Below are positions 4,272-63,684 of a stretch of DNA of 64,000 nucleotides, piece by piece. The stretch comes from an uncultured Erysipelotrichales bacterium. Its GTDB lineage: Bacteria; Bacillota_I; Bacilli_A; Erysipelotrichales; Coprobacillaceae. The translations under genes and the position numbers were made by a program. The DNA lies in NCBI GenBank assembly GCA_910579135.1, contig CAJTTM010000010.1, positions 716-64,715 of the forward strand, written 5' to 3'. How positions within the stretch are numbered: the first letter of the stretch is position 1; the number at the start of each line of letters is the position of its first letter. The notes beneath the pieces are model-generated. The model saw nothing but the letters and a program-made list of their open reading frames with translations. It was not told where the DNA came from and made no database searches.

Positions 4272-4835
4272 CTAGGCTTTCTTATTAAATTTGTTCATTG
4301 CTTTATTAAAATCTTTATCTAAATAAGTCATCACTGCTTGACAAGCATTTTCAATACCTTTTTGAATATCCCCCTGCTCATTATTCATAAACTTACCCAA
4401 AACATAATCAGCAGTAGGAATCAAAGGATTCCTATCAATTCCAACACGTATTCTTTTAAAATTCTGTGTTTTCACATGACTAATAATACTCTTTATTCCA
4501 TTATGACCCCCGGCACTCCCACTTTCTCTAAGTCTAAGCTTACCTACAGGCATATCTAAATCATCATAAATCACTAACAAATCTTCAACCTTTATCTTAA
4601 AAAAGTTCATTAATGCACTTACAGATTCACCAGATAAATTCATAAACGTCATTGGTTTCAATAAGATAACATCTTCACTTTTATATTTGAATTTCACATA
4701 TTCTCCTTTAAATTTAGAAGTAGATATCTGAACATTAAACTCATCCGCAAGTTTATCCATAACCATAAAGCCTGTATTATGACGTGTTTTTTCATATTCT
4801 TTTCCAGGATTTCCAAGTCCAACAATAAGTTTCAT
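4272..4835 (-). CDS. pth: peptidyl-tRNA hydrolase
   Basis: 187 aa, N-terminal signature MKLIVGLGNPGKEYEKTRHNTGF. Confidence 0.95.
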   Translation of the reverse strand: MKLIVGLGNPGKEYEKTRHNTGFMVMDKLADEFNVQISTSKFKGEYVKFKYKSEDVILLKPMTFMNLSGESVSALMNFFKIKVEDLLVIYDDLDMPVGKLRLRESGSAGGHNGIKSIISHVKTQNFKRIRVGIDRNPLIPTADYVLGKFMNNEQGDIQKGIENACQAVMTYLDKDFNKAMNKFNKKA

Positions 4836-4843
4836 AAACCCTC

Positions 4844-6937
4844 CTATTTCACAAGAATCACTAAACTTATACCTGTTACTTTAATCTTATTATCAACAAT
4901 CTCTTCATTGTCCATATGATAAAACAATTGATAATCTTCTAAAACATCAAATTCAAAAGTTTCTTTAGAAGGATTAAAATAAATGATAAATTCACTATAT
5001 TCTCCTTGTATTTGTTTTAATGTATATTTAATAATACGATGTTCTAAATTTTCTAATTTTACATTTTCACGAATTATATCATAATTATTATATCTAAAAC
5101 AAGGATTATTTTTTCTTAATTGAACTAACATTTTAAAATATTCAACAGCATCATTTCTTCTATCTCTTAAAGACCAATCTAATGCATTAATCGTATCTCC
5201 TGCATTATAAGTGTTTGTCTGCCCTCTTTTTGAACGATAGAATTCTTGTCCACTATGGATAAAAGGAACACCTTGTGATAACATAACAGCCGCTAACATA
5301 AGTCTTGTACGCTTTCTTAAATCCTCTTTTTCTTCATCATAATTTGATATCTTTAATTTATCATATGTTGTTGCATTATCATGACATTCTACATAATTAA
5401 TTGTTTGTTCTATATTATTAAACATATAAGTATTACAAATCACATTAATCATTTCATTTGTTTTATAAGTATCTCCAGAAAAATATCCTTTATTTTCCAT
5501 TTGATTCGTCCCACGACAAATATTTCTAAACACATCATTAAAGAAACCTATAGTAGGAACCTTTGCATTATTTTGAATCGTTGTTCTTTCATTTTCATCT
5601 AAAGCCGTTCCCATGTTCCATCCTTCTCCATAGACAATAAATGATGGATCTATAGCTTTTGCTTGTTTATCAATAAGTTTCATTGTTTCTATATCAATAA
5701 TACCCATTAAATCAAAACGAAAACCATCACAACCATAGAATGTTTGCCATCTTTTACACATATCCAAAATATATTTACGACACATCTTTGCTTTCGTATT
5801 TAAATCATTACCACACCATGAACCATTTGATAATGTTCCATCATTATTTCTTCTAAAGAAATAATGTGGTACTGTTTTTTCTAAGGCATTTTGATTCACA
5901 TCATGCATATGATTAAAAACAACATCTAAGACCACTCTTATTCCTCTTGAATGTAACGATTCTATCATTTGTTGTGCTTCTCTTATTCTTAAATACCCAT
6001 CATCAGGATCACTAACATAACTTCCTTCAGTGACATTATATTGTACAGGATCGTATCCCCAATTATATAAAATATGAGGGTTCGCTTCATCAACTGTCGC
6101 AAAATCGTTAATTGGCATCAATTGAACATGAGTTATACCTATTTCACTTAAATAATCTAATCCCGTTGTATGTCCAATATCAGTTGTTGTCCCTTCCTCA
6201 CTAAACGCTAAAAAGCGTCCTCTATTTTTCATTCTTCCTGCTTTATGCATAGAAAAATCTCTTACACTTGTTTCATAAATAATTGCATCTGTCTTTGATA
6301 CTAAAGGTGGTAAATCATAAGATTTCATCTTTAATTTTTCTTTATCAACAACAATACATGTTCTTCCATTTGAAGATGTAGCATAGGCATATGGATCCAT
6401 TGCGATATCATAGTTACCTGCAAATTTCACTAAATAGAAATAATGCATACCTTCAAAATCACCTTTTAATGTGATACTATATACCCCTTTTTCTCCTCTT
6501 TTCATAGGATATAAAACTTCTTCACCATGATATATTGTTTTTAAAATAATACCTGTTGATAATGGTGACCATACCTTAAACGTACACTCTTCCTTAGTAT
6601 AATGACAACCTAAATCATCACCATCATAATAATATAAATCATCAAATTCTTCAACTAAAGATAATCTTGTGAAATCTAAAAAACAAGAAAGTCCATAAGC
6701 ATCAACAACCCTATAAACCGAACCAATCTCAAATGAAGCATTTAATGTATAAATTCTAAAACCAGCCTCTTCATTATTTGGATTGACATCACCACTTAAT
6801 AACTCTATTTCATCACTCTTTAAATTCTTTAAATAAAACTTATTACTAATTCCATCATAATAATTCTTTGATAAATAAACCTTTATTTCATCAAATCCTG
6901 TTGCATAAGCAACCATACGTACTGCATTTTGTTCCAT
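4844..6937 (-). CDS. pulA: type I pullulanase (GH13 debranching enzyme), no signal peptide
   Basis: YNWGYDP pullulanase signature plus GH13 regions DVVFNH, GFRFDLMG, YGEGW, YVECHDN. Start moved to ATG 6937 (MEQNAV), 6 nt after GAGGTG. Confidence 0.85.
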   Translation of the reverse strand: MEQNAVRMVAYATGFDEIKVYLSKNYYDGISNKFYLKNLKSDEIELLSGDVNPNNEEAGFRIYTLNASFEIGSVYRVVDAYGLSCFLDFTRLSLVEEFDDLYYYDGDDLGCHYTKEECTFKVWSPLSTGIILKTIYHGEEVLYPMKRGEKGVYSITLKGDFEGMHYFYLVKFAGNYDIAMDPYAYATSSNGRTCIVVDKEKLKMKSYDLPPLVSKTDAIIYETSVRDFSMHKAGRMKNRGRFLAFSEEGTTTDIGHTTGLDYLSEIGITHVQLMPINDFATVDEANPHILYNWGYDPVQYNVTEGSYVSDPDDGYLRIREAQQMIESLHSRGIRVVLDVVFNHMHDVNQNALEKTVPHYFFRRNNDGTLSNGSWCGNDLNTKAKMCRKYILDMCKRWQTFYGCDGFRFDLMGIIDIETMKLIDKQAKAIDPSFIVYGEGWNMGTALDENERTTIQNNAKVPTIGFFNDVFRNICRGTNQMENKGYFSGDTYKTNEMINVICNTYMFNNIEQTINYVECHDNATTYDKLKISNYDEEKEDLRKRTRLMLAAVMLSQGVPFIHSGQEFYRSKRGQTNTYNAGDTINALDWSLRDRRNDAVEYFKMLVQLRKNNPCFRYNNYDIIRENVKLENLEHRIIKYTLKQIQGEYSEFIIYFNPSKETFEFDVLEDYQLFYHMDNEEIVDNKIKVTGISLVILVK

Positions 6938-12630: not shown

Positions 12631-13500
12631 ATGAAATTATCTAGAAATGACGTATGTTGGTGTGGCAGTCAAAAGAAATATAAAAAATGTCATTTAGAAC
12701 TTGATAATAAATTAAGTGCATTAAGAAGAGTTGGTTATAAAATACCTCCTCATAGTATGATTAAAAATGAAGAACAAATTAAAGGAATTAGAGAAGCAGC
12801 AATTATCAATAATGGTTTATTAGATGAAATAGAAAAACAAATATGTGCTGGTATGAGTACCGAAGATATTGATAATATCACAACAAAATATCTTAAAGAA
12901 CATGATGCTTCTTCTGCTGATTATCAATATCAAGGTTATCCAAAGAGTATCTGTACTTCGGTTAATGATGAAATATGTCATGGTATCCCTTCTAAGAAAG
13001 TGATTTTAAAAGAAGGTGATATTATCAATGTTGATGCAACGACTTGTTATCATGGATATTATGCTGATGCATCAAGAATGTTTATGATTGGTAATGTAAG
13101 TGATGAGGCAAAACGCTTAGTAGAAGCAACAAAAGAGTGCTTGATTAAAGGTATAGAAAGTATCAAACCTTTTCAAAGTACAATTGGTGACATCGGTAAA
13201 GCTATTGAAGAATATGCAACAAGTCAAGGTTATAGTGTTGTAAGGGAATTCTGTGGACATGGTGTTGGACTTGCAATGCATGAAGATCCTTATATCTATC
13301 ATTATCATACTCATACTCCTACTTGTGTTCTTGTTCCTGGTATGGTTATTACAGTCGAACCCATGATTAATCAAGGAAAACGATTCCTTCATATTGGTAA
13401 AAATGGATGGACTGCTTATACTAATGATGGGTTACTTTCTGCACAATGGGAACATACTCTATTAATCACTGAAGATGGAGTTGAAATTATATCTCAATAA
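12631..13500 (+). CDS. map: type I methionine aminopeptidase with N-terminal SEC-C zinc motif
   Basis: SEC-C CWCGSQKKYKKCH followed by a MetAP pita-bread domain (DATTCYHGYYADASRMF, CGHGVG, VEPMI, QWEHT). Start set at ATG 12631 after AGAGGTG. Confidence 0.9.
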   Translation: MKLSRNDVCWCGSQKKYKKCHLELDNKLSALRRVGYKIPPHSMIKNEEQIKGIREAAIINNGLLDEIEKQICAGMSTEDIDNITTKYLKEHDASSADYQYQGYPKSICTSVNDEICHGIPSKKVILKEGDIINVDATTCYHGYYADASRMFMIGNVSDEAKRLVEATKECLIKGIESIKPFQSTIGDIGKAIEEYATSQGYSVVREFCGHGVGLAMHEDPYIYHYHTHTPTCVLVPGMVITVEPMINQGKRFLHIGKNGWTAYTNDGLLSAQWEHTLLITEDGVEIISQ

Positions 13501-13510
13501 TTTTGAAAAA

Positions 13511-13540
13511 CACAATAGCTAACTATTGTGCTTTTTATTT
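13511..13540 (+). terminator. rho-independent terminator of map
   Basis: CACAATAG-CTAA-CTATTGTG followed by CTTTTTATTT. Confidence 0.75.
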
Positions 13541-13544
13541 GATG

Positions 13545-13880
13545 AACATTTCTTGAATATATCTTTTTTATCTATATCTAAAAGGTTAAGTATTAAATCT
13601 TCTCGTTCTTCTTCATTATTATTATTGATTTTCTCAATAATATCCTTCGATAACAACCAGTTTATGCATCCTATAAATAAAAATACTATCTTTTATTACC
13701 TTTATTTTTTAATAGCATAATCTACAATTTTTCCTATTGCATAACCTTCTTTATATCCCATCTCTTTTAATCATTCACATATCTCACACATTACCATTTT
13801 TCTTTTCTCCTTTATAAAATGAATATATTTTTTTAATCATTCATTAAAACTATTCAATGTATCATATTTTGTATAAAAAA
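13545..13880 (-). pseudogene. orphan 3' remnant of a second Rpn-family gene (C-terminal cassette only, with in-frame stops)
   Basis: Reverse translation: FIKEKRKMVMCEICE*LKEMGYKEGYAIGK ... SKDIIEKINNNNEEEREDLILNLLDIDKKD. It parallels the C-terminus of the decayed copy at 62785..63090 (YYKQDERGVKKMCEITRKWMG ... INDSNEEDLDQLLLNISDIDKEED). Confidence 0.6.
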
Positions 13881-13884
13881 CCAC

Positions 13885-14706
13885 TTAAATCATTGCTAAT
13901 TGTTCTATAGTTAAACCTGTAAATTTTTGTATATCCTCATTACTAAATCTTTCATCCTTTTTCATCTCTATTGCAATTTTAAATTTCTCTTCTATCTTCC
14001 CCTCAGCTTTCCCATTGGTAAAACCTCTTTTTTCACCAATGATTTCTCCTTCAATCCTTCCCATTTCTTTTAATTGATCACATATCTCACACATTTCTAT
14101 CACACCTTTCCTTTCTTCTTTATAATATTTGACCCATTTTTTTAAGACTTCACTATACATCTCATTTGGATCAATACAATGAAAATCATGGATTAATCTT
14201 CCTAGTACTGTATCTTCATCCTGATAATCTCCATTCACATATATCATCTCTTGTCCTATATCTACTTCTTCTTTTGTTTCTTTATTCGTAAGTTTAAGAT
14301 GATATATTGGTAATCCCTTCTTAAAATAGTCTCCTTCACACATAAAAACGATATAACTTTCTGGAACTTCTTCATATTCTGAACTTTTCTTTATTTCTTG
14401 TGTATCTATAAGACTAAGATTCAATCTTCCTCTTTTTGGTGTCGCTCCTTTTTCTTTTCTCTGTATTTCTACATTGATTCTCATCTTTTCACTTTTGACA
14501 TAAATATCAAACTGAGCTTCTCTTCCTTTGATATTGCTCATATAATGCTCAACATGATGTTCATCAATATGTAGATGTCTTCCTAGTATGATATCAATCA
14601 TTTCATTAACACATTCCCTATGACCAAAGACAACTTTGATCATAGGAGAATGAAATAAAGTCATAGACTTAATAAGGGATAAAACATCTTGATTTTTAGC
14701 TTTCAT
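13885..14706 (-). CDS. Rpn-family recombination-promoting nuclease / PD-(D/E)XK putative transposase
   Basis: 273 aa. Family-typical N-terminus (MTLFHSPMIKVVFG) and PD-(D/E)XK core (REAQFDIYV ... INVEIQRKE). Same family as the TIGR01784-type 'putative transposase or invertase' proteins. Confidence 0.75.
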   Translation of the reverse strand: MKAKNQDVLSLIKSMTLFHSPMIKVVFGHRECVNEMIDIILGRHLHIDEHHVEHYMSNIKGREAQFDIYVKSEKMRINVEIQRKEKGATPKRGRLNLSLIDTQEIKKSSEYEEVPESYIVFMCEGDYFKKGLPIYHLKLTNKETKEEVDIGQEMIYVNGDYQDEDTVLGRLIHDFHCIDPNEMYSEVLKKWVKYYKEERKGVIEMCEICDQLKEMGRIEGEIIGEKRGFTNGKAEGKIEEKFKIAIEMKKDERFSNEDIQKFTGLTIEQLAMI

Positions 14707-14715
14707 TTATTTGAC

Positions 14716-14855
14716 CTCCTATTATTCTATACTAATAAAAAGAGGCTTTTTCTTTTTTTAAATGTATAATTTCATAATATGAAAATATAGACTTCTATAA
14801 ATCTATTATAAGAGTATAAAACAGAATTGTCATTGGACATTGTGTCCAAAGAAAA
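14716..14855 (-). repeat. ~140-bp conserved 5' flank of Rpn genes, copy A
   Basis: About 85% identical by eye to 63516..63659, e.g. CTTCTATAAATCTATTATAAGAGTATA and TTGTCATTGGACATT in both. Confidence 0.8.
14805..14833 (-). promoter_or_regulatory. promoter of the Rpn gene (ATGACA-17-TATAAT) overlapped by a palindrome
   Basis: -35 at 14833..14828, -10 at 14810..14805. The palindrome TTGGACA-N3-TGTCCAA (14833..14849) abuts the -35. Conserved in the second copy. Confidence 0.55.
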
Positions 14856-14889
14856 ACTAATAAATAACTCTAGATTACTTATTAGCTTA

Positions 14890-15387
14890 TTATAATTGAT
14901 AATTAAAAACAGAACATTGTAATGTTTGGTTAGCAGTATAAGAATCAATAACCTCTATTTCCTTTCCACCCATTACTTTATAAAACAAACAAGAAGGATT
15001 TTCTTTTAAACATTCTATTATCATTTCTTTATATCCTTGGTGTTTTAATAATTTCTTCCCTTCTTCAATTAAAGATCGACCAAGACCTTGACCTTGATAT
15101 TCTTTTAATACATATAAAGATTGTATTTCTCCAAAATCTTTATATTTTTCATTTCTACATTTCACACATGTCATAACTCCTACTACCTTATTATCAACTA
15201 CTGCAACAGTATATTTCATAGGATTATCTTTAATATCTTTTTCTCTTTTCTTTATATCTTTTTTAGTATTTGTAAGTTGATTTAAAAAAGAATCATTAAT
15301 AATTCCTTTATATGTATTTTTCCATGTCAATACATAAACTTCATTGATTTGATGAGCATCTTCTATCTTAGCCTTTCGTATTTCCAT
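14890..15387 (-). CDS. GNAT family N-acetyltransferase
   Basis: 165 aa. Acetyl-CoA motif QGQGLGRSLIEEG. Confidence 0.85.
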   Translation of the reverse strand: MEIRKAKIEDAHQINEVYVLTWKNTYKGIINDSFLNQLTNTKKDIKKREKDIKDNPMKYTVAVVDNKVVGVMTCVKCRNEKYKDFGEIQSLYVLKEYQGQGLGRSLIEEGKKLLKHQGYKEMIIECLKENPSCLFYKVMGGKEIEVIDSYTANQTLQCSVFNYQL

Positions 15388-32082: not shown

Positions 32083-35000
32083 TTATTTATAATCAAATTT
32101 CTTGATTGTTATATAAGCTCCTATAGCACATAATACTAATATAGTATATGGCATAATGATAAATGGATCATTTGTCTTGGCACCATCTGCCTTTTTATTG
32201 TTATCTTTTTGATCAACAACTTTTTCATTATCCACTTTTACCTTATCTCCTAATACATCTTTATCAATTTTATCGTTATCTCCAGGTTTTACTGAATCTT
32301 TTATAGCTGATTTTAATAATTCATCTATAACTTTTTGTAAATCTTTTGCATATTGATCAACTTCGCTTTGTTTAGTGAAATCCTTATTAAAATCTATACT
32401 ATTAATAACATCATTTAAATTTTTAACCTTACCTGCATCATATATTGATAAATCACTTGGAACTTTCTTTAATAATTCATTAACCTTTGTATAATTAGCT
32501 AATTTATATTTAAGCTCTTGAATTGCTTTAGAAATAGCCTTTGCATAACCATCTACTTTTTCCTGTTCATCAATCTCTTTATTATATACAACAGCTTGAA
32601 TTGCTTTGTTAAGATTTTGAACTGATTTTTCATCATAGATAGATAAATCATTTGGAACTTTTTCTAACACTTCTCTTATTCTTGTATAATCAGCCCCACC
32701 ATAAACAAGAATTTCATAAATAACAGGATCAACTGCCCTATCAAAAGTCAATTTCACTGCAAGAATAGATGATTGAATATCAAATAACTTCCATGCCCTA
32801 TCTAATGTACCAATATCTTTCCAATTTCCATTTAAATCTTGAACTCCCACCTTTGCATTAGTTATAGATTTTTGATCTTGTAAGATACCAATTTTTAATA
32901 CATCTTTACAAGTTGTCATTGGATAAATCAATTCTTGACCATCTTTTATTTCTAGAATATTTGAATGTGTTGTGATATTTTGATCATCAATAAAATGACT
33001 ATTGTTAATATTGATAGTGCTATTTTTATCAATATATTTTAAATCACTTGCATCAACGGTCTTATTAAATTCAATTTCATAAACCTGTAGCCAATTGCTA
33101 TTCTTTACAGTTGCGACAAATCTTATATATCTTGCAACAGTACCATTCAATGAAGATGTTGCTAAATATTTATCACCTTCAACAACATAATCAGAAACTG
33201 ACATTTTTTCACCAACATCAGACCAAGTTTTTCCATCTTGTGAAATTTGAACTTTCATTTCTTTAAATCCATCAACTTCTCCAACTTTTTTAGGATTAAC
33301 TGCAAACCATATTGAATAGTCATGTACAGAAATAGTTGAACCTAAATCGACTTGTATATAATTTCCTACCTTTGTTGCAGCTCCTGAATAGAATTTTGTA
33401 TCCATATTCCCATCCATAGCTTTATCAATTGCAAATTCAGATTTATATTCTTTCATATCTGTACTTAAAACAGAAGTATTGGCAGAAGTATCTAAAGTTT
33501 GATTATATTTGATTTCATAAACCTTTACAGGATTTTCACTTGATTCACCTGTTACAAAACGAATATATCTTACTAAGTTTCCATCTAATCCAAATGTAGC
33601 GATACTATGATTTCCACTAGTTGTATATTTATCACTTGATAAATAATCACTTGTATCTGTCCATGTTTTTCCATCTAATGATGTTTGAAGTTTCAAGTTC
33701 TTGAAAGCTTCATTTTTATCCAAATAAATACTTGCATCATATAATGGAACTAATGTACCAAAGTCTACACTTATATAATCACCATTTTGTGATACTCTAT
33801 TTGTAGTTAATGATGTATTCATATCATTATCCATGATTTTATCTGTTTTTGTATCAACAGGTATGTTTGTATCTACTTGAAGATGATTACCATAATCTAA
33901 ATAAGTTGCATCATAATCAATTTCATAAATCTTTGTCCATGTATCAGTTGTTCCTGAGGCAACAAAACGGAAATATCTTGCTGTTGCACCCTTTGCATCA
34001 AATACAATTTTCTTCATTGTATCATCTACATCAATATAGTCACTAACACTTTGAGCTTTTCCAACTTTTGTCCAAATCACACCATCTTTAGAAATTTCTA
34101 ATTCTGTAGAAACAAAACCATCAACTTTACCTTTACTGATACCATTGTATAATTCAACTTTATTTAAAGTTGCAAGATTTCCTAAATCAACAGTTATATA
34201 ATTATTATCTTTTGCATAACTATTTGACCAGAAACATGTTGTCATATCACCATCAACGGCGTTATTCAAAACATTTGTCTTATATGTTGATAAATCTGAT
34301 GTCACATTGACAAATAATGGTTGATATCCTTCAGTTATAGATAACTGTTTCATATCCAATTGTGCATTATCTTTTGTACTTACAATTCGTACATATGCGC
34401 CAGTCACAACTTCTTGATTTGTTATATGATTATCATCAACTGATCCAATATCATTCCATGACAAACCATTTAATGAATATTGTAATTTAAATGCATCATT
34501 TTGAGAAATATTGGCATCAATCTTATAAAGATTCATAGCTTTTGGTAAAGCAATAGTAATATAATCATCTTTATTCATTGTTGTTTTAATATTAGAAATT
34601 GAATATGTTGATCCATCTTTCTTTACTTTTTGAATATCTAGATTATCTACATTTGTTATCATTCTTTCATGAATTGTTGGATAATCAATATTTAAATTTA
34701 ATATTTCCCTTATACTATTTATACTCTTTTCTAATAAAGGAGTAATACGATAAGAACCAACAACAATATAAGATTGTCCTTTAATTGTATCAATAATATG
34801 AGAACCACTCTTAGATAATGTATTTTCTAATTCAGATATCTTATCAATTGTTTTTCCTATATCACCTTGTAATGCATATTCATAGCCTTCCATTGCAGCA
34901 ATTCCTGCTTTAGCCATATCTTCATAAGCATCTATATGTTTTTCAACTTCAGATAACAAATTCTGATTTTTAATTTTTCTTAATGCTTGAACATCATTCA

Positions 35001-38000
35001 ACATTTGTTTGAATTTTGCTTTCATATTAGCAATTTCAGTTTTAAAATTATCTCCATATTTTAAGGCATTTTCAAATCTATCAAGATCTTCTTTTAAATA
35101 TTGAGATTCTTCTAATTTAAATCCTGATTTTCTTTCTGGTAAATCAATATAACTAATATTATCTGCAAAACGTTCAAATTCTTCATTGGCTTCTGGAACT
35201 AACTCTTTAATTGAACGTTTCCAACTTGAAACACTATCAAACGCAGAAGTATTCCATGCATAGTCAGCACCACTAAAAACAGTCACTTTTGATGCATCTG
35301 CTTCTGACATAGGATTCAAGAAGAAACTATTAATATTATCAACATCATTATCTAAAATATCTAATGATCCCATCAATAATTTTCCATAACAATAATCTGT
35401 AACAGGATAATTCCACCAAACACCTAAATCTCTATCTACACCTGTTTTCTTTTTTGGTGTTTCAAAATAATCTTTAGTAATCGCAGACATTGTATGTTGC
35501 CCTGTCCACAATACAACTGTGTCAGGATGAATTGTTTTCATAAATGGAGTAAAATATTTTGCCCAATCTCCACCCCAGCTATTATTGTATCGTGATGTTA
35601 CAGTAATAAATGGTTTTACATCTCCATATTTTTCATTTAAATATTTATAAACATCATTAATAAGTTTAGCATGCTTTTCTCCATCAGCAATACTTAAATC
35701 TAAATCATCATAGAAAATACCAAACTGACGAACACCTAAGCTATAAACTTGTTCAAATTTCGCAATTAAAGTTTCATAATCTCCACTACCATTTGTAAAA
35801 TTATAATCTGCACCTGGATGAATTGTCCAACAGAAATCCATATTGTTTTCATGAGCAATTTTAACTAAATCAGAAATATGTTTAGCTTCTTGCGTTGGAT
35901 AGAGTTTTCTCCATTCATCTCTATGATAAATATCATCTTTTGGAGCATAAATATATGTTGTCATCTTATATTTTGATGTATCTTCAAATAAACTTGCTCT
36001 TTCTTCAAATGTCCAAGGGAATCCATAGAATCCTTCAACATATCCTCTAAACTCAACATCAGGATAATCTGAAATAGTAACTTCAGCTAAATGATTATCA
36101 GCTGTCTTTTGTTCAAAGATTTGTAATAATGACATAACTCCATAATATACACCATCTTCATCTGAACCAATGATTGTGATTTGACCACTCTTATGTTCAT
36201 CATTACTTAGATTCATGACATATCCTTGTTTCTTCTCTAAAGCCTTTTGACTATCTTTTACTGAATCACAAATAACACATTCTTTATCACAATCGTTTGC
36301 TAAAATAATTACTGGATTAGTTCCAACTTCATTAACAATCTGATATGTATATCCATTCTTCTCTAATAATTGTTGTACTTTTAGTAAAGTTGCTTGATCT
36401 TGTTCACCATGAACTAGAATATCAACTGTTTTTCCGTTAAGTAGCATACCATTATTAGAATCATAAGTAATATCTTGAACTGTTGGATAAATAGAAACTG
36501 TTGTCTTTGCAGTAATAATATCATTATCAATTGTTAATAATGCATTTCTTAATTCAATAATTGATAAACGAATATCATTATTAAAGCATTCTTTATCTGC
36601 TATCAATTTTTCTGCATTTGAAATCATCTTAGCATATTTTTGATAGTTTTGTCTTAACATTGTTCCTTCAACTGTACCAACTTCAATTTTATCAAGTTTT
36701 GCTTGAACTTCTTTTATTGCTTTTTCTAACTCTACATTTCGTTTTTCATATGCTTCAATTTCATAAATTGAATATCCATAATTTCCTGAAGGTTCTAAAA
36801 GTTCTAATTTAATATATCTTACAGATGTATCTATATCAGTAAATACTCTTTCTCCTTTATTTCCATCAGTAACCTCTTGAATCAAAGTATAATTTTGTCC
36901 ATCTTTTGAACCTAATACATTATATTTTTTAGCATATGAAGATTCAAATGTGACTATTACTCTATCAAGAGAATATTCTTTTTCTAAATCAACAACAACT
37001 GATTCAACTGGATTTTCTTTATATGCAGCACCATTGTATGCATTACCCCAACGTGAATCTAAATCACCATCTGTGATATGAGAATAATCAAATTTATTGT
37101 TTGTATTCTTATATGTTGAAGTTGTTGTTACTTTTTTATCAAGTGCTATATTTGTATAAATTCTTGAATCTGGATTTTTTTCATATACTTCTAATTCATA
37201 TAGTGCATATCCATATTTATACTTATCACTTTTTGGTGCATGGAAAGCTAATCGTACATACTGTGTTTTAACGTTTCCTAATCCATCATATTCTATTCTT
37301 TGTTTATCCTCATATGGTACATTATCTTTAATATCTTTAATATCAAAGAAAGTTTTTCCATCCAATGATCCTTGAATTGTAAAATCTTTAGCATAAGCTT
37401 TTTCCCATGAAATAGCTATCATATCTATTGGATACACTGCCCCTAAATTAACAGTTAAATTTTCTTCTAGATTACCATTACCATTGTTATAACCATTTGT
37501 ATCATTATATTTCACTTGCCATTTATTAGTATCTATCTTTCCATCAACAACATAATTTGCTCCATAACCAGTTTTTGCATAGGTTGAAGAAGCGCTTGTT
37601 TCTTTATTAAGGGCAAGATTTGGATATCTTGCTTCTAAATTATCAATTGCTTTTTGAATATCACTAACTGCTTGATCAATATCATCTTGTGTAGCAGTAG
37701 ATGATAATGACTTCGCTTTTTGTACCTTTTCTTTAACGATATTTAATGTAGCATCAGAATATTTTTCTTCATTGATTTCATCTACTTTTTTATAGATTTC
37801 ATCTAATGCTACTGTATCCTTTGCCTCATATACTTCTAATTCATAAATTGAATAACCATATTGGCTAGCAGGAGTATGCATAGCTAATCTTACATATCTT
37901 GTTTCTACTGCATCCAATTCATGAACTTCAGTTTCACCAGTACCTTTTGTAATATCTTTGATATCAAAGAAAGTTTCTCCATCAAGCGATCCTTGAAGAG

Positions 38001-39546
38001 TATAACTTGTCGCATGTGCTGCTTCCCATGAAATAGACACAGTTCCAATATTGTAAGTATCTCCTAAATCAACCGTTATTGTTTCTTCAGTGTCTCCTTG
38101 ACCTCTATTAAATGGTGCAACATTATATGCATTCCCCCAACGAGTACCCATGTCACCATCAACCGCATGAGCCACTGCAAATGTACTTTTAGCATAAGTA
38201 GATGAAGCAACTACATTCTTCATATATGCTAAATTACTTGTATTATATTCTAAATTCTTAGGAACATAAATTTGGAAAATCTCATTAATTTCATCATCTG
38301 AGACACTTGCTAGTGAAGATGTTGGATTCTTTGAAATATTAAAAGCTCTTTCTGTGAAATTTCCCCACCATGAAACATCAACGACAACTTGATTTGATGA
38401 AACATTCCCTGGTCTTACAGCTGCAGTATTCACTCCTCCATTGATCCATCCTTCTGGTCTATATTGCCATCCATCAGCAATCACAATGACAGAGCCAACT
38501 GGTAAAGTTGCTTTTGTAAATTTTTGTGTGACTACAAAATTTGGAGCAATAGCACTTGTTGTATCCATAGTATAATGTTTATCATTTTTTGCTGATGAAT
38601 TATAGAATCCACCATTTGTTAATGTAAGTGAAGCTCTCTCTAATTCAGAAAGATCTATCTGATATTGAGATTGAGTCACTTCATATGGTTTTGAAAAAGC
38701 ATTTTTTACTGATTCAATAGCCATTGCTTTTTCTTTATCACTCACACCACTTGGTTTATATGATAATTTATCAATATCTAAACCAGTAAAAGCATGTGCA
38801 AAAGTGATTCCTGCAATATATCTTCCTACATCATAAGTTAAATGATAACCATCTCTTGTAAGAGTATCTCCTATAAAAGATGATCTTGCATTTTGAACAG
38901 ATGTTCCTGTAGGAATTACAAAATCAATATCTTTATTTGTATCGATTTTGTTTTGAACAGCCGATACAATCGCATTATACATTGTTTTTTGATCTTTATT
39001 ATAATTTTTAAAATCTGCATGACTAGAATTACCTTGATATGCCCATGTCATATTCCAACCAAATTGAGCATCTGGTTGTAATTCTCTAACAATATCCATT
39101 AGTTCTTGTAAATCATCATAAGTATCAGGTAAACCACTACTTCCACTTGCTTGTTGAAAAGTAATATAATCCCAATCCTCACTTAATACAGCTGTTTTTA
39201 TGCTTGTACTTTTTGTTGTTACCCAACTACCACTATCATTAGTATAGTATGTATAAGCATTAGAATCGCTTTTTGCATTTTCAAGATGAGTTGCTAAAGC
39301 ACATCCACCAATGTATAAATTCCCTAATTTTACATTTTTTACACCTAAATCTTTAGCGATTTCATATAGATATTGTTGACTATCTACTGAAAAACTATTT
39401 CCTATACTTAATACTTTAAGGGTTTGATCTTCATTCCACTTTGAGTCAACTTCATATCCATAAGAGTTTTTAATATGCATTGGTAAAATCCCTATACATA
39501 ATACTAAAACCATTATTATTTTTAGAAATCTTTTACATTTTCTCAT
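32083..39546 (-). CDS. 2487-aa surface protein: SGNH/DUF4886-like esterase domain + several F5/8 type C (CBM32) modules + GH84 beta-N-acetylglucosaminidase + more CBM32 + FIVAR + TM anchor
   Basis: Signal peptide; GNSFSVDS block; repeated ...YGYSIYELEVYE ends of discoidin modules. GH84 core RGYVEGFYGFPWTFEE ... TYIYAPKDD ... FGIFYDDL. Two FIVAR-like repeats. Start set at ATG 39546 after AGGGAGGA; the track used an upstream TTG. Confidence 0.85.
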   Translation of the reverse strand: MRKCKRFLKIIMVLVLCIGILPMHIKNSYGYEVDSKWNEDQTLKVLSIGNSFSVDSQQYLYEIAKDLGVKNVKLGNLYIGGCALATHLENAKSDSNAYTYYTNDSGSWVTTKSTSIKTAVLSEDWDYITFQQASGSSGLPDTYDDLQELMDIVRELQPDAQFGWNMTWAYQGNSSHADFKNYNKDQKTMYNAIVSAVQNKIDTNKDIDFVIPTGTSVQNARSSFIGDTLTRDGYHLTYDVGRYIAGITFAHAFTGLDIDKLSYKPSGVSDKEKAMAIESVKNAFSKPYEVTQSQYQIDLSELERASLTLTNGGFYNSSAKNDKHYTMDTTSAIAPNFVVTQKFTKATLPVGSVIVIADGWQYRPEGWINGGVNTAAVRPGNVSSNQVVVDVSWWGNFTERAFNISKNPTSSLASVSDDEINEIFQIYVPKNLEYNTSNLAYMKNVVASSTYAKSTFAVAHAVDGDMGTRWGNAYNVAPFNRGQGDTEETITVDLGDTYNIGTVSISWEAAHATSYTLQGSLDGETFFDIKDITKGTGETEVHELDAVETRYVRLAMHTPASQYGYSIYELEVYEAKDTVALDEIYKKVDEINEEKYSDATLNIVKEKVQKAKSLSSTATQDDIDQAVSDIQKAIDNLEARYPNLALNKETSASSTYAKTGYGANYVVDGKIDTNKWQVKYNDTNGYNNGNGNLEENLTVNLGAVYPIDMIAISWEKAYAKDFTIQGSLDGKTFFDIKDIKDNVPYEDKQRIEYDGLGNVKTQYVRLAFHAPKSDKYKYGYALYELEVYEKNPDSRIYTNIALDKKVTTTSTYKNTNNKFDYSHITDGDLDSRWGNAYNGAAYKENPVESVVVDLEKEYSLDRVIVTFESSYAKKYNVLGSKDGQNYTLIQEVTDGNKGERVFTDIDTSVRYIKLELLEPSGNYGYSIYEIEAYEKRNVELEKAIKEVQAKLDKIEVGTVEGTMLRQNYQKYAKMISNAEKLIADKECFNNDIRLSIIELRNALLTIDNDIITAKTTVSIYPTVQDITYDSNNGMLLNGKTVDILVHGEQDQATLLKVQQLLEKNGYTYQIVNEVGTNPVIILANDCDKECVICDSVKDSQKALEKKQGYVMNLSNDEHKSGQITIIGSDEDGVYYGVMSLLQIFEQKTADNHLAEVTISDYPDVEFRGYVEGFYGFPWTFEERASLFEDTSKYKMTTYIYAPKDDIYHRDEWRKLYPTQEAKHISDLVKIAHENNMDFCWTIHPGADYNFTNGSGDYETLIAKFEQVYSLGVRQFGIFYDDLDLSIADGEKHAKLINDVYKYLNEKYGDVKPFITVTSRYNNSWGGDWAKYFTPFMKTIHPDTVVLWTGQHTMSAITKDYFETPKKKTGVDRDLGVWWNYPVTDYCYGKLLMGSLDILDNDVDNINSFFLNPMSEADASKVTVFSGADYAWNTSAFDSVSSWKRSIKELVPEANEEFERFADNISYIDLPERKSGFKLEESQYLKEDLDRFENALKYGDNFKTEIANMKAKFKQMLNDVQALRKIKNQNLLSEVEKHIDAYEDMAKAGIAAMEGYEYALQGDIGKTIDKISELENTLSKSGSHIIDTIKGQSYIVVGSYRITPLLEKSINSIREILNLNIDYPTIHERMITNVDNLDIQKVKKDGSTYSISNIKTTMNKDDYITIALPKAMNLYKIDANISQNDAFKLQYSLNGLSWNDIGSVDDNHITNQEVVTGAYVRIVSTKDNAQLDMKQLSITEGYQPLFVNVTSDLSTYKTNVLNNAVDGDMTTCFWSNSYAKDNNYITVDLGNLATLNKVELYNGISKGKVDGFVSTELEISKDGVIWTKVGKAQSVSDYIDVDDTMKKIVFDAKGATARYFRFVASGTTDTWTKIYEIDYDATYLDYGNHLQVDTNIPVDTKTDKIMDNDMNTSLTTNRVSQNGDYISVDFGTLVPLYDASIYLDKNEAFKNLKLQTSLDGKTWTDTSDYLSSDKYTTSGNHSIATFGLDGNLVRYIRFVTGESSENPVKVYEIKYNQTLDTSANTSVLSTDMKEYKSEFAIDKAMDGNMDTKFYSGAATKVGNYIQVDLGSTISVHDYSIWFAVNPKKVGEVDGFKEMKVQISQDGKTWSDVGEKMSVSDYVVEGDKYLATSSLNGTVARYIRFVATVKNSNWLQVYEIEFNKTVDASDLKYIDKNSTININNSHFIDDQNITTHSNILEIKDGQELIYPMTTCKDVLKIGILQDQKSITNAKVGVQDLNGNWKDIGTLDRAWKLFDIQSSILAVKLTFDRAVDPVIYEILVYGGADYTRIREVLEKVPNDLSIYDEKSVQNLNKAIQAVVYNKEIDEQEKVDGYAKAISKAIQELKYKLANYTKVNELLKKVPSDLSIYDAGKVKNLNDVINSIDFNKDFTKQSEVDQYAKDLQKVIDELLKSAIKDSVKPGDNDKIDKDVLGDKVKVDNEKVVDQKDNNKKADGAKTNDPFIIMPYTILVLCAIGAYITIKKFDYK
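35704..35709 (-). other. GH84 catalytic Asp-Asp codons
   Basis: Reverse complement reads GGT ATT TTC TAT GAT GAT TTA (GIFYDDL), in frame (codons 1280-1281). Confidence 0.75.
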
Positions 39547-39693
39547 GCCTTTTCCTCCCTTCAATAAGAAAACTCTGTATTTTTTTATATCCCTCCTTAT
39601 CTTATAAACCCAAAATATATATCATAATATGAATCATTTAATGAATTGTTATAATATCTCACACCCTTTCTTTTTTTTATTTCTGTATTTTAG

Positions 39694-62784: not shown

Positions 62785-63504
62785 CTAATAAATATATTTT
62801 AATATATCTTCTTCCTTATCAATATCAGAAATATTTAATAAAAGTTGATCTAAATCTTCTTCATTACTATCATTGATTTTATTAATAATGTATTCTAATA
62901 TAGATCCTAAGTTTTTCGTTAATTGATTAATAATTGTTTTCGTTATACCTTGACCCATACCTTGGGCTATTCCATAAACCAAACCATTATCATACTCAAT
63001 TCCCATCCATTTTCTTGTTATCTCACACATCTTTTTGACTCCTCTTTCATCTTGTTTATAATACCTAAAACATTTCTTTGATCTACACAATGAAAGTCAT
63101 GGATCATTCTTCCTATTTTGGTTTCTTCATCTTTATATTCTCCATTAACAATCAGTATCTCTTATCAATCATCAACTTCTTCTTGACTTTCCAGCTCTAC
63201 TCTCTTGACTCTATATATTTGGTAGTCCCCTTTTAAAATAATCTTTATAGTAGATATAAATCACATAGCTATCTGGTATATCTTTATACTTTGTTCCTTT
63301 TAAACTTCTATATCAATAATTTCTCCTTCACTGCTTTCTACGAGAATATCCAATCGTAATTCTTTTCCATGAAGATTACTGATATAGTATTCCACTTGAG
63401 AATCTTTGATATGTATAGGTTTATTAAAGAGAGACGAGAGAGGACTACCCTCATCATAGGGTTATTAAATAAAGTCATAGACTTCATATTTCTAATAAGT
63501 TCAT
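62785..63504 (-). pseudogene. decayed Rpn-family nuclease gene with multiple frameshifts
   Basis: ATG 63504 behind AAGGAGA stops after 6 codons. Other frames carry KSMTLFNNPMMRVV, IGRMIHDFHCVDQ and YYKQDERGVKKMCEITRKWMG, matching the intact copy at 13885..14706. Confidence 0.75.
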
Positions 63505-63515
63505 ATTTTTTATTT

Positions 63516-63659
63516 CTCCTTATTATTACATACAAATAAAAAGAAGATTTTTCTTTTTTTAATGACATGATTTCATCATATGAAAATAATAACTTCTATA
63601 AATCTATTATAAGAGTATAGAAGAGTGTTGTCATTGGACATTTTGCCCAAAAAGAAAAG
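63516..63659 (-). repeat. ~140-bp conserved 5' flank of Rpn genes, copy B
   Basis: Aligns with 14716..14855 and includes the ATGACA-17-TATAAT promoter and a degenerate palindrome TTGGGCAAAATGTCCAA. Confidence 0.8.
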
Positions 63660-63684
63660 AAGTTATTTTTTATAACTCCCTTTA

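Follow-up and report, generated by a model that had tools for sequence, protein, structure and literature searches.

We found that a gene on the minus strand of an uncultured Erysipelotrichales genome (positions 13885–14706 of the window, by which we mean the whole 64,000-nt stretch of DNA that was analyzed) is probably a member of the Rpn family, in its PDDEXK_2 branch, that is built like the gene-within-a-gene toxin-antitoxin RpnL/RpnS of E. coli. The full-length, RpnL-like rpn ORF encodes 273 aa, and an in-frame ORF inside its 3′ part (13885–14094, minus strand; 69 codons and a stop, counted from the ATG at 14094–14092, which is M205 of the long protein) would encode a small RpnS-like protein.

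The intact rpn gene and its nuclease part

The GC content of the window is 29%, and by tblastn it holds three copies of the same family, all on the minus strand. The 273-aa protein encoded by the intact copy matched the Pfam family PDDEXK_2 (PF12784) at 34.6 bits against a cut-off of 27.4, and the NCBIfam model TIGR01784, [quoted passage not shown] at an E-value of 8e-11 across profile positions 5–271 of 273, with a score of 42.2 bits that lies under the curated 52.1. Among 33 representative homologues, D67 and E80 were 100% conserved and Q82 was 97% conserved, and these residues correspond to the predicted catalytic D...E-x-Q/K of PD-(D/E)XK enzymes. An AF2 model of the protein, built on 24 homologues, reached a pLDDT of 82.8, and its best PDB folds were the PD-(D/E)XK nucleases McrC (E = 2e-3), R.BspD6I and Can2, all of them weak matches. 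A search of a plasmid collection returned just two matches, which were distant, came from Ligilactobacillus and were annotated as Rpn family. These data show that the long ORF joins an N-terminal PD-(D/E)XK nuclease domain to a C-terminal module that is small and helical.

A strong internal Shine-Dalgarno sequence precedes an in-frame ATG

Eight nucleotides before the ATG at 14094 lies the Shine-Dalgarno (SD)-like element GGAAAGGTG (14103–14111, minus strand), with a duplex energy of −14.3 kcal/mol, where the score is the pairing of positions −20 to −4 with the 3′ tail of 16S rRNA as calculated by ViennaRNA duplexfold. This element is the strongest SD-like site within the window rpn gene. The window’s 37 long ORFs contain 419 internal in-frame ATGs, of which the one at 14094 scores best, with the runner-up reaching −11.0 kcal/mol. 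A value of −14.3 kcal/mol is attained by just 0.04% of the 16,029 internal codon positions in the window, and it beats both the gene’s own start (−11.4) and the median first start codon (−8.8). Some of the strength of the SD is owed to conservation of the protein, since it overlaps the conserved motif K-E-x-x-(E/K)-G-V-x-x-M-C. The preliminary description had reported an internal SD and ATG in all three Rpn-family copies and, for the intact gene, GGAAAGGTG 8 nt upstream of ATG 14094 with 69 codons to the stop; both observations were borne out. The 12-mer ATGTGTGAGATA is exact in all three copies and absent from the rest of the window.

Conservation of the internal start among homologues

A homologue scan that took one genome per species yielded 80 loci, mostly from Clostridia, Erysipelotrichaceae and Selenomonadales at 29–41% identity, with one of the 80 being a 97% identical “uncultured Bacilli” contig; 76 of the genes were usable. 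The codon aligned to M205 was ATG in every one of these 76, inside the K-E-x-x-(E/K)-G-V-x-x-M-C motif. Mean SD pairing at the M205 site was −13.4 kcal/mol, compared with −4.0 at other positions in the same genes and −9.7 in a null in which the seven upstream codons were resampled synonymously by the codon usage of each locus.

For a non-redundant set we took the 33 representatives, which share less than 60% mutual identity. In every one of the 33, observed pairing was stronger than the null mean (Stouffer z = −8.9), and the SD at M205 was the strongest of its gene in 24 of the 33 and within the top 2.5% in all of them. Codon choice just upstream was biased in the same region, with Gly(−4) encoded as GGA 19 times against 9.8 expected (z = 3.6) and Val(−3) as GTG 13 times against 6.3 expected (z = 3.2). 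Both columns ranked in the top 7 of 136 conserved columns by codon bias, with a few unrelated columns higher, and the per-column synonymous signal is moderate. As a control we used M183, which is likewise invariant yet has no SD (mean pairing −3.4). M205 is also the final invariant column of the protein, in that all columns beyond it vary among the 33 representatives. Comparison of the homologues shows that, at the level of sequence, the start signals at M205 are conserved beyond coding needs.

Repeats, fold and free-standing relatives of the small module

Thirteen residues past M205, the module carries five four-residue units, RIEG EIIG EKRG FTNG KAEG (residues 217–236; 13999–14058, minus strand), which fit the pattern xxxG and come after MCEIC(D/E)QLKEMG. 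Among close homologues (approximately 80–95% identical in the nuclease part, or approximately 53% for the database protein P0019), the number of xxxG units ranged from 0 to 7 and all indels were multiples of 4 aa. Tandem Repeats Finder (TRF) detected no period-12 DNA repeat beneath the four-residue units, and the repeats are seen at the protein level only.

The AF2 model of the 69-aa protein had a mean pLDDT of 67, with values below 50 for the first helix and the repeat tract, and placed helices at residues 31–46, 52–59 and 63–68 with pLDDT 71–86. These RpnA-S-like C-terminal helices correspond to approximately 13888–14004 (minus strand). When the model was compared with 350,542 PDB chains, the top fold match was 7TH0, the helical bundle of E. 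coli RpnA-S with its long first helix (E = 0.45, probability 0.99, target-normalized TM 0.76, rmsd 0.5 Å over 37 columns with 38% identity). PDB sequence searches with the 69-aa protein and with a profile returned nothing relevant, and 7TH0 came from the fold comparison alone. At an E-value of 0.45, this best PDB match is a resemblance, and it suggests that the C-terminal module would fold like RpnA-S.

Free-standing versions of the module occur in related loci. Intact ORFs of 55–75 aa lie 0–60 nt past the rpn stop in L017, L026, L033, L035, L050 (which has two copies) and L074. All of them start at the homologous Met, carry SD-like sequences of −8 to −11 kcal/mol and are 50–78% identical to the C-terminal module of the adjoining rpn. 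A similar downstream small ORF with a weak SD was present in L041, and PF14261 (DUF4351) is listed in the precomputed Pfam assignments of several close homologues, whose tails are of the kind that the orphan copy described below resembles. The L050 locus (4770–5190) has its two small ORFs in tandem after one rpn, with homologous Met starts and 51–60% identity to the rpn tail, and these ORFs are an array of RpnSs-like genes. Two database proteins that begin with MCEIC, P0028 and P0029, were considered as stand-alone small genes and rejected, since they lie 42–72 nt from contig ends and are truncation artefacts.

Promoter, leader and gene neighborhood

A promoter-like site for the full-length transcript, ATGACA-17-TATAAT (14805–14833, minus strand), agreed with the consensus at 11 of 12 positions and is kept upstream of the paralogues. 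Just upstream of it, and overlapping the −35 element, is the palindrome TTGGACAcaaTGTCCAA (TTGGACA-N3-TGTCCAA), and the same overlap is present in all paralogues. A consensus scan, which can miss real promoters, found no sigma-70-like internal promoter upstream of 14094 on the coding strand, and among homologues such a promoter was found in just 3 of 33, with no clear enrichment. As no internal promoter was found, the full-length mRNA would probably be the template for RpnS here, in contrast to E. coli.

The promoter and the approximately 100-nt leader are 86–100% identical between paralogues whose proteins are just ~40% identical; the regions compared were 14707–14860 and 63505–63660 of the window (both minus strand), L081 2450–2597 and L001 1380–1530. 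In a predicted leader hairpin (14714–14746, minus strand; fold z-score −2.55), the SD of the full-length start, AGGAGGU, is base-paired to GCCUCUU. Three distinct sequences, a small sample, retain this hairpin, with two compensatory pairs among them. If real, the hairpin would hold translation of RpnL below that of RpnS, a suggestion that we make tentatively. Rfam gave nothing credible in 13400–15000 and no family for the promoter or leader.

The neighboring genes are those for a methyltransferase, a two-component system, a C39-like peptidase and methionine aminopeptidase, and further those for a GNAT protein, a DUF4037/TPR protein, a glycosyltransferase and a MarR regulator. These surroundings are made up of housekeeping genes, with no defense island, and PADLOC produced no model match. 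Elsewhere in the window, the ORF list includes a very long ORF of 2493 aa with a TTG start (32083–39564, minus strand).

The orphan and decayed copies

The orphan copy (13519–13863, minus strand) adjoins the intact gene on its downstream side and is a 3′ remnant of a DUF4351-type rpn, running from approximately residue 179 to the end in one frame with five in-frame stops. The C-terminal portions of P0013, P0004 and P0019 recovered it in tblastn at E-values of 1e-12 to 1e-18. Its SD, AAAGGAG (GGAG at 13810–13807), is followed after 9 nt by ATG 13797, GTA and ATG 13791; the latter ATG is the homologue of M205, while the former is an extra start. The reading frame gives MVMCEICE and then a TGA at 13773–13771 (TGT GAG ATA TGT GAA TGA after ATG 13791). 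The preliminary description was right about an SD before MVMCEICE in this copy, but its position for the start, “about 13815,” was ~18 nt off. With its five in-frame stops, the orphan leaves no intact separate small ORF downstream of the window rpn gene. It is either a dead second copy (RpnSs-like) or a displaced older 3′ end; it includes ~26 codons upstream of the Met, and so may be the latter instead of a duplicated small gene.

The decayed copy retains an intact 81-aa RpnS-type ORF (MCEITRKW...ILKYIY; 62785–63030, minus strand), whose SD, GAGGAG at 63044–63039, lies 8 nt before ATG 63030, just as had been described. Its nuclease part (63031–63504, minus strand, starting at 63504) is pseudogenized, with stops and frame changes evident by tblastn. 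Compared with the intact P0020 gene in L081, this part shows 87.1% identity in an alignment that has 149 gap columns, which comprise deletions of ~22, 28, 73 and 25 nt and a single 1-nt insertion. From the ATG on, the two loci are identical at 244 of 245 nt, followed by 83 of 83 nt in the 3′ flank, while the leaders are 86.5% identical and the upstream flanks are unrelated.

Survival of the small ORF in the decayed copy was considered as a sign of selection for an orphan antitoxin, and this was rejected: the ORF is intact because it is young, as its near-identity to the intact homologue indicates, and it has had no time to decay. The preliminary description had given weight to both additional copies, but with the youth of this ORF and the five stops of the orphan, neither is independent evidence of selection.

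Mosaic structure of the C-terminal module

When the decayed copy (62785–63504, minus strand) was aligned with L081 2598–3464, a sharp mosaic boundary was seen within ~7 nt of the internal ATG. This sharp boundary, together with the unrelated upstream flanks, indicates that paralogues recombined at the conserved junction to give this locus. As judged from these alignments, the locus at 62785–63504 is a mosaic of a dead nuclease part and a small ORF that is still intact.

The final ~100 nt of the intact gene (13885–13985, minus strand) are ~93% identical to the tail of the database protein P0025 (L086, 1160–1259). The N-terminus of P0025 has no similarity to the window protein, and its precomputed Pfam assignment is PF04754, which we take to be the family of the E. 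coli Rpn proteins. The shared tail indicates that the C-terminal module has been exchanged between Rpn genes, across Pfam families. This sharing begins after the repeat tract, and the displaced older 3′ end downstream begins near codon 179. With mosaic boundaries at several places in the module, the C-terminal part is mosaic overall.

It is conceivable, though we hold it to be doubtful, that the internal start is also a module joint for diversification, combining cassette exchange at the ATGTGTGAGATA junction with a leader hairpin that biases output toward the antitoxin. Rpn loci would then renew their toxin-antitoxin specificity by swapping cassettes around the invariant ATGTGTGAGATA junction, the exchange would leave orphan tails behind, as in Rhs and CDI loci, and the conserved leader hairpin, by masking the RpnL SD, would tilt output to the antitoxin. 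At Rhs/CdiA loci a variable C-terminal module is swapped at a conserved junction and older modules are left downstream. We draw on these loci as an analogy only: there is no sequence relationship, and the part swapped here would be the specificity/antitoxin part of the same polypeptide and not a toxin tip.

Alternative explanations for the internal start

Two alternatives would leave the gene with a single product. The K-E-x-x-(E/K)-G-V-x-x-M-C motif could owe its conservation to some structural function where the domains of the full-length protein meet, with the SD-like sequence a by-product and no separate protein made. This account has some appeal: purine-rich Lys, Glu and Gly codons resemble an SD, the SD coincides with the conserved K196 and G201, pairing in the synonymous null already reaches −9.7 kcal/mol, which is fairly strong, and M183 is also invariant, so that invariance by itself does not mark a start codon. 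It would not, however, lead one to expect an SD that exceeds the synonymous null in 33 of 33 genes (z = −8.9), with an excess of GGA and GTG at codons −4 and −3, nor the lack of an SD at M183, nor the free-standing intact ORFs that start at exactly the M205-equivalent Met in at least six related loci. Alternatively, the internal SD might make elongating ribosomes pause, or provide a folding checkpoint, where the nuclease domain meets the tail, given that it is located exactly at the domain boundary; SD-like pausing has been proposed in the literature and is contested. Yet an invariant ATG 8 nt further on would not be needed for pausing, and the stand-alone downstream ORFs would be left unexplained. 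Published mutational data weigh against both accounts, as the small protein of E. coli rpnA and that of a C. difficile rpn were lost when the equivalent RBS and ATG were mutated (PMC10400941). We therefore judge the structural explanation to be quite unlikely and the pausing explanation to be highly improbable.

A different possibility is that the small protein is made but that its main role is something other than that of an antitoxin, either as an HTH-like autoregulator acting on the promoter palindrome or as a required subunit of a nuclease complex. Cas11d, a subunit made from within cas10d, offers a parallel, and many antitoxins autoregulate too. The tail has a weak Pfam match to HTH_60 (E = 0.06), low-probability Foldseek matches include TrpR-like and DeoR DNA-binding domains, and the conserved palindrome overlaps the −35 element in all paralogues. 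These HTH matches are nonetheless below significance, nothing in these data ties the palindrome to the small protein, and the best structural match is to RpnA-S, which is known to bind RpnA-L and block its cleavage (PMC10400941). We regard a main role of this kind as unlikely, and return to the reading of the gene as an RpnL/RpnS pair.

Comparison with known systems

Zhong et al. (PNAS 2023; PMC10400941) described how five rpn genes of E. coli and one of C. difficile yield RpnS proteins from internal translation initiation sites (iTIS). In their account, four-residue repeats, which occur in B. cereus and C. difficile too, start 8–20 residues past the initiating Met; every E. coli rpn gene has an internal promoter or transcription start that gives a short RpnS transcript; in RpnA the SD is encoded by K240–E241 and the start is M244; and downstream RpnSs copies occur, as in rpnE-ypaA and at rpnC, with DUF4351 as a free-standing RpnS (PMC10400941). 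Co-expression of RpnL and RpnS was stated to be probably broadly conserved (PMC10400941 and commentary). A literature search found no work later than Zhong et al. (2023) and its commentary.

The window gene shares with E. coli RpnA–E a PD-(D/E)XK domain followed by a small variable C-terminal module that has an in-frame SD and ATG at its start, four-residue repeats within the published range past the Met (at 13 residues in the window gene), and the occurrence of second copies of the small module downstream; its tail, as modeled, may also have the fold of RpnA-S (7TH0). It differs in that its N-terminal domain is PF12784 and not PF04754, its genome is that of a member of the Bacilli with 29% GC, and it has no detectable internal promoter, while toxicity through DNA cleavage with SOS induction, inhibition by the cognate RpnS and phage defense are known for the E. 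coli side. The C. difficile rpn gene (SI Fig. S2C–D) is likewise a Bacillota rpn, from which a predicted internal RBS and ATG yields RpnS in E. coli, and it shows four-residue repeat variation between strains, although this likeness is taken from the published description only. The orphan of the window, together with the small ORFs of L017, L026, L033, L035, L050 and L074, resembles RpnSs/YpaA and DUF4351 (PF14261) in being a duplicated small module after rpn; the window copy is different in that it is dead, with five stops, and has ~26 extra codons upstream of the Met.

The view of the internal start as RpnS-like, put forward in the preliminary description, is upheld by the ATG in 76/76 genes, the SD in excess of the synonymous null and the lack of an SD at M183, and further by the repeats, the 7TH0 fold match and the free-standing ORFs in related loci. 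What does not hold is the novelty for Firmicutes that was implied, as RpnS of C. difficile and the repeats of B. cereus and C. difficile had already been reported (PMC10400941). That the window gene is a further Rpn gene of the known antitoxin-inside-toxin-gene design is well supported, and since this design has already been shown in E. coli and in a C. difficile gene (PMC10400941), the novelty is low and no new mechanism is involved.

By extension from Zhong et al. (2023), ribosomes would initiate at 14094 on the full-length mRNA to produce the 69-aa RpnS, whose repeat-bearing first helix would pair with the identical segment of the 273-aa RpnL. This pairing would keep the RpnL nuclease inactive and block DNA cleavage, and the number and sequence of the repeats would make it cognate-specific. 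Phage infection would release the nuclease, and the pair would in this way defend against phage.

Our findings mean that the RpnL/RpnS design is recognizable from sequence alone in the genome of an uncultured low-GC member of the Bacilli, where a predicted 69-aa small protein had been missed by automatic annotation, and that within the PDDEXK_2 branch every gene sampled (76/76) has the internal start. Two small leads accompany this result: the SD-masking leader may bear on how the ratio of toxin to antitoxin is set, and the mosaic junction at the start codon may bear on how rpn loci diversify. The window gene leaves the published picture unchanged and is a further argument for including internal starts when Rpn genes are annotated.
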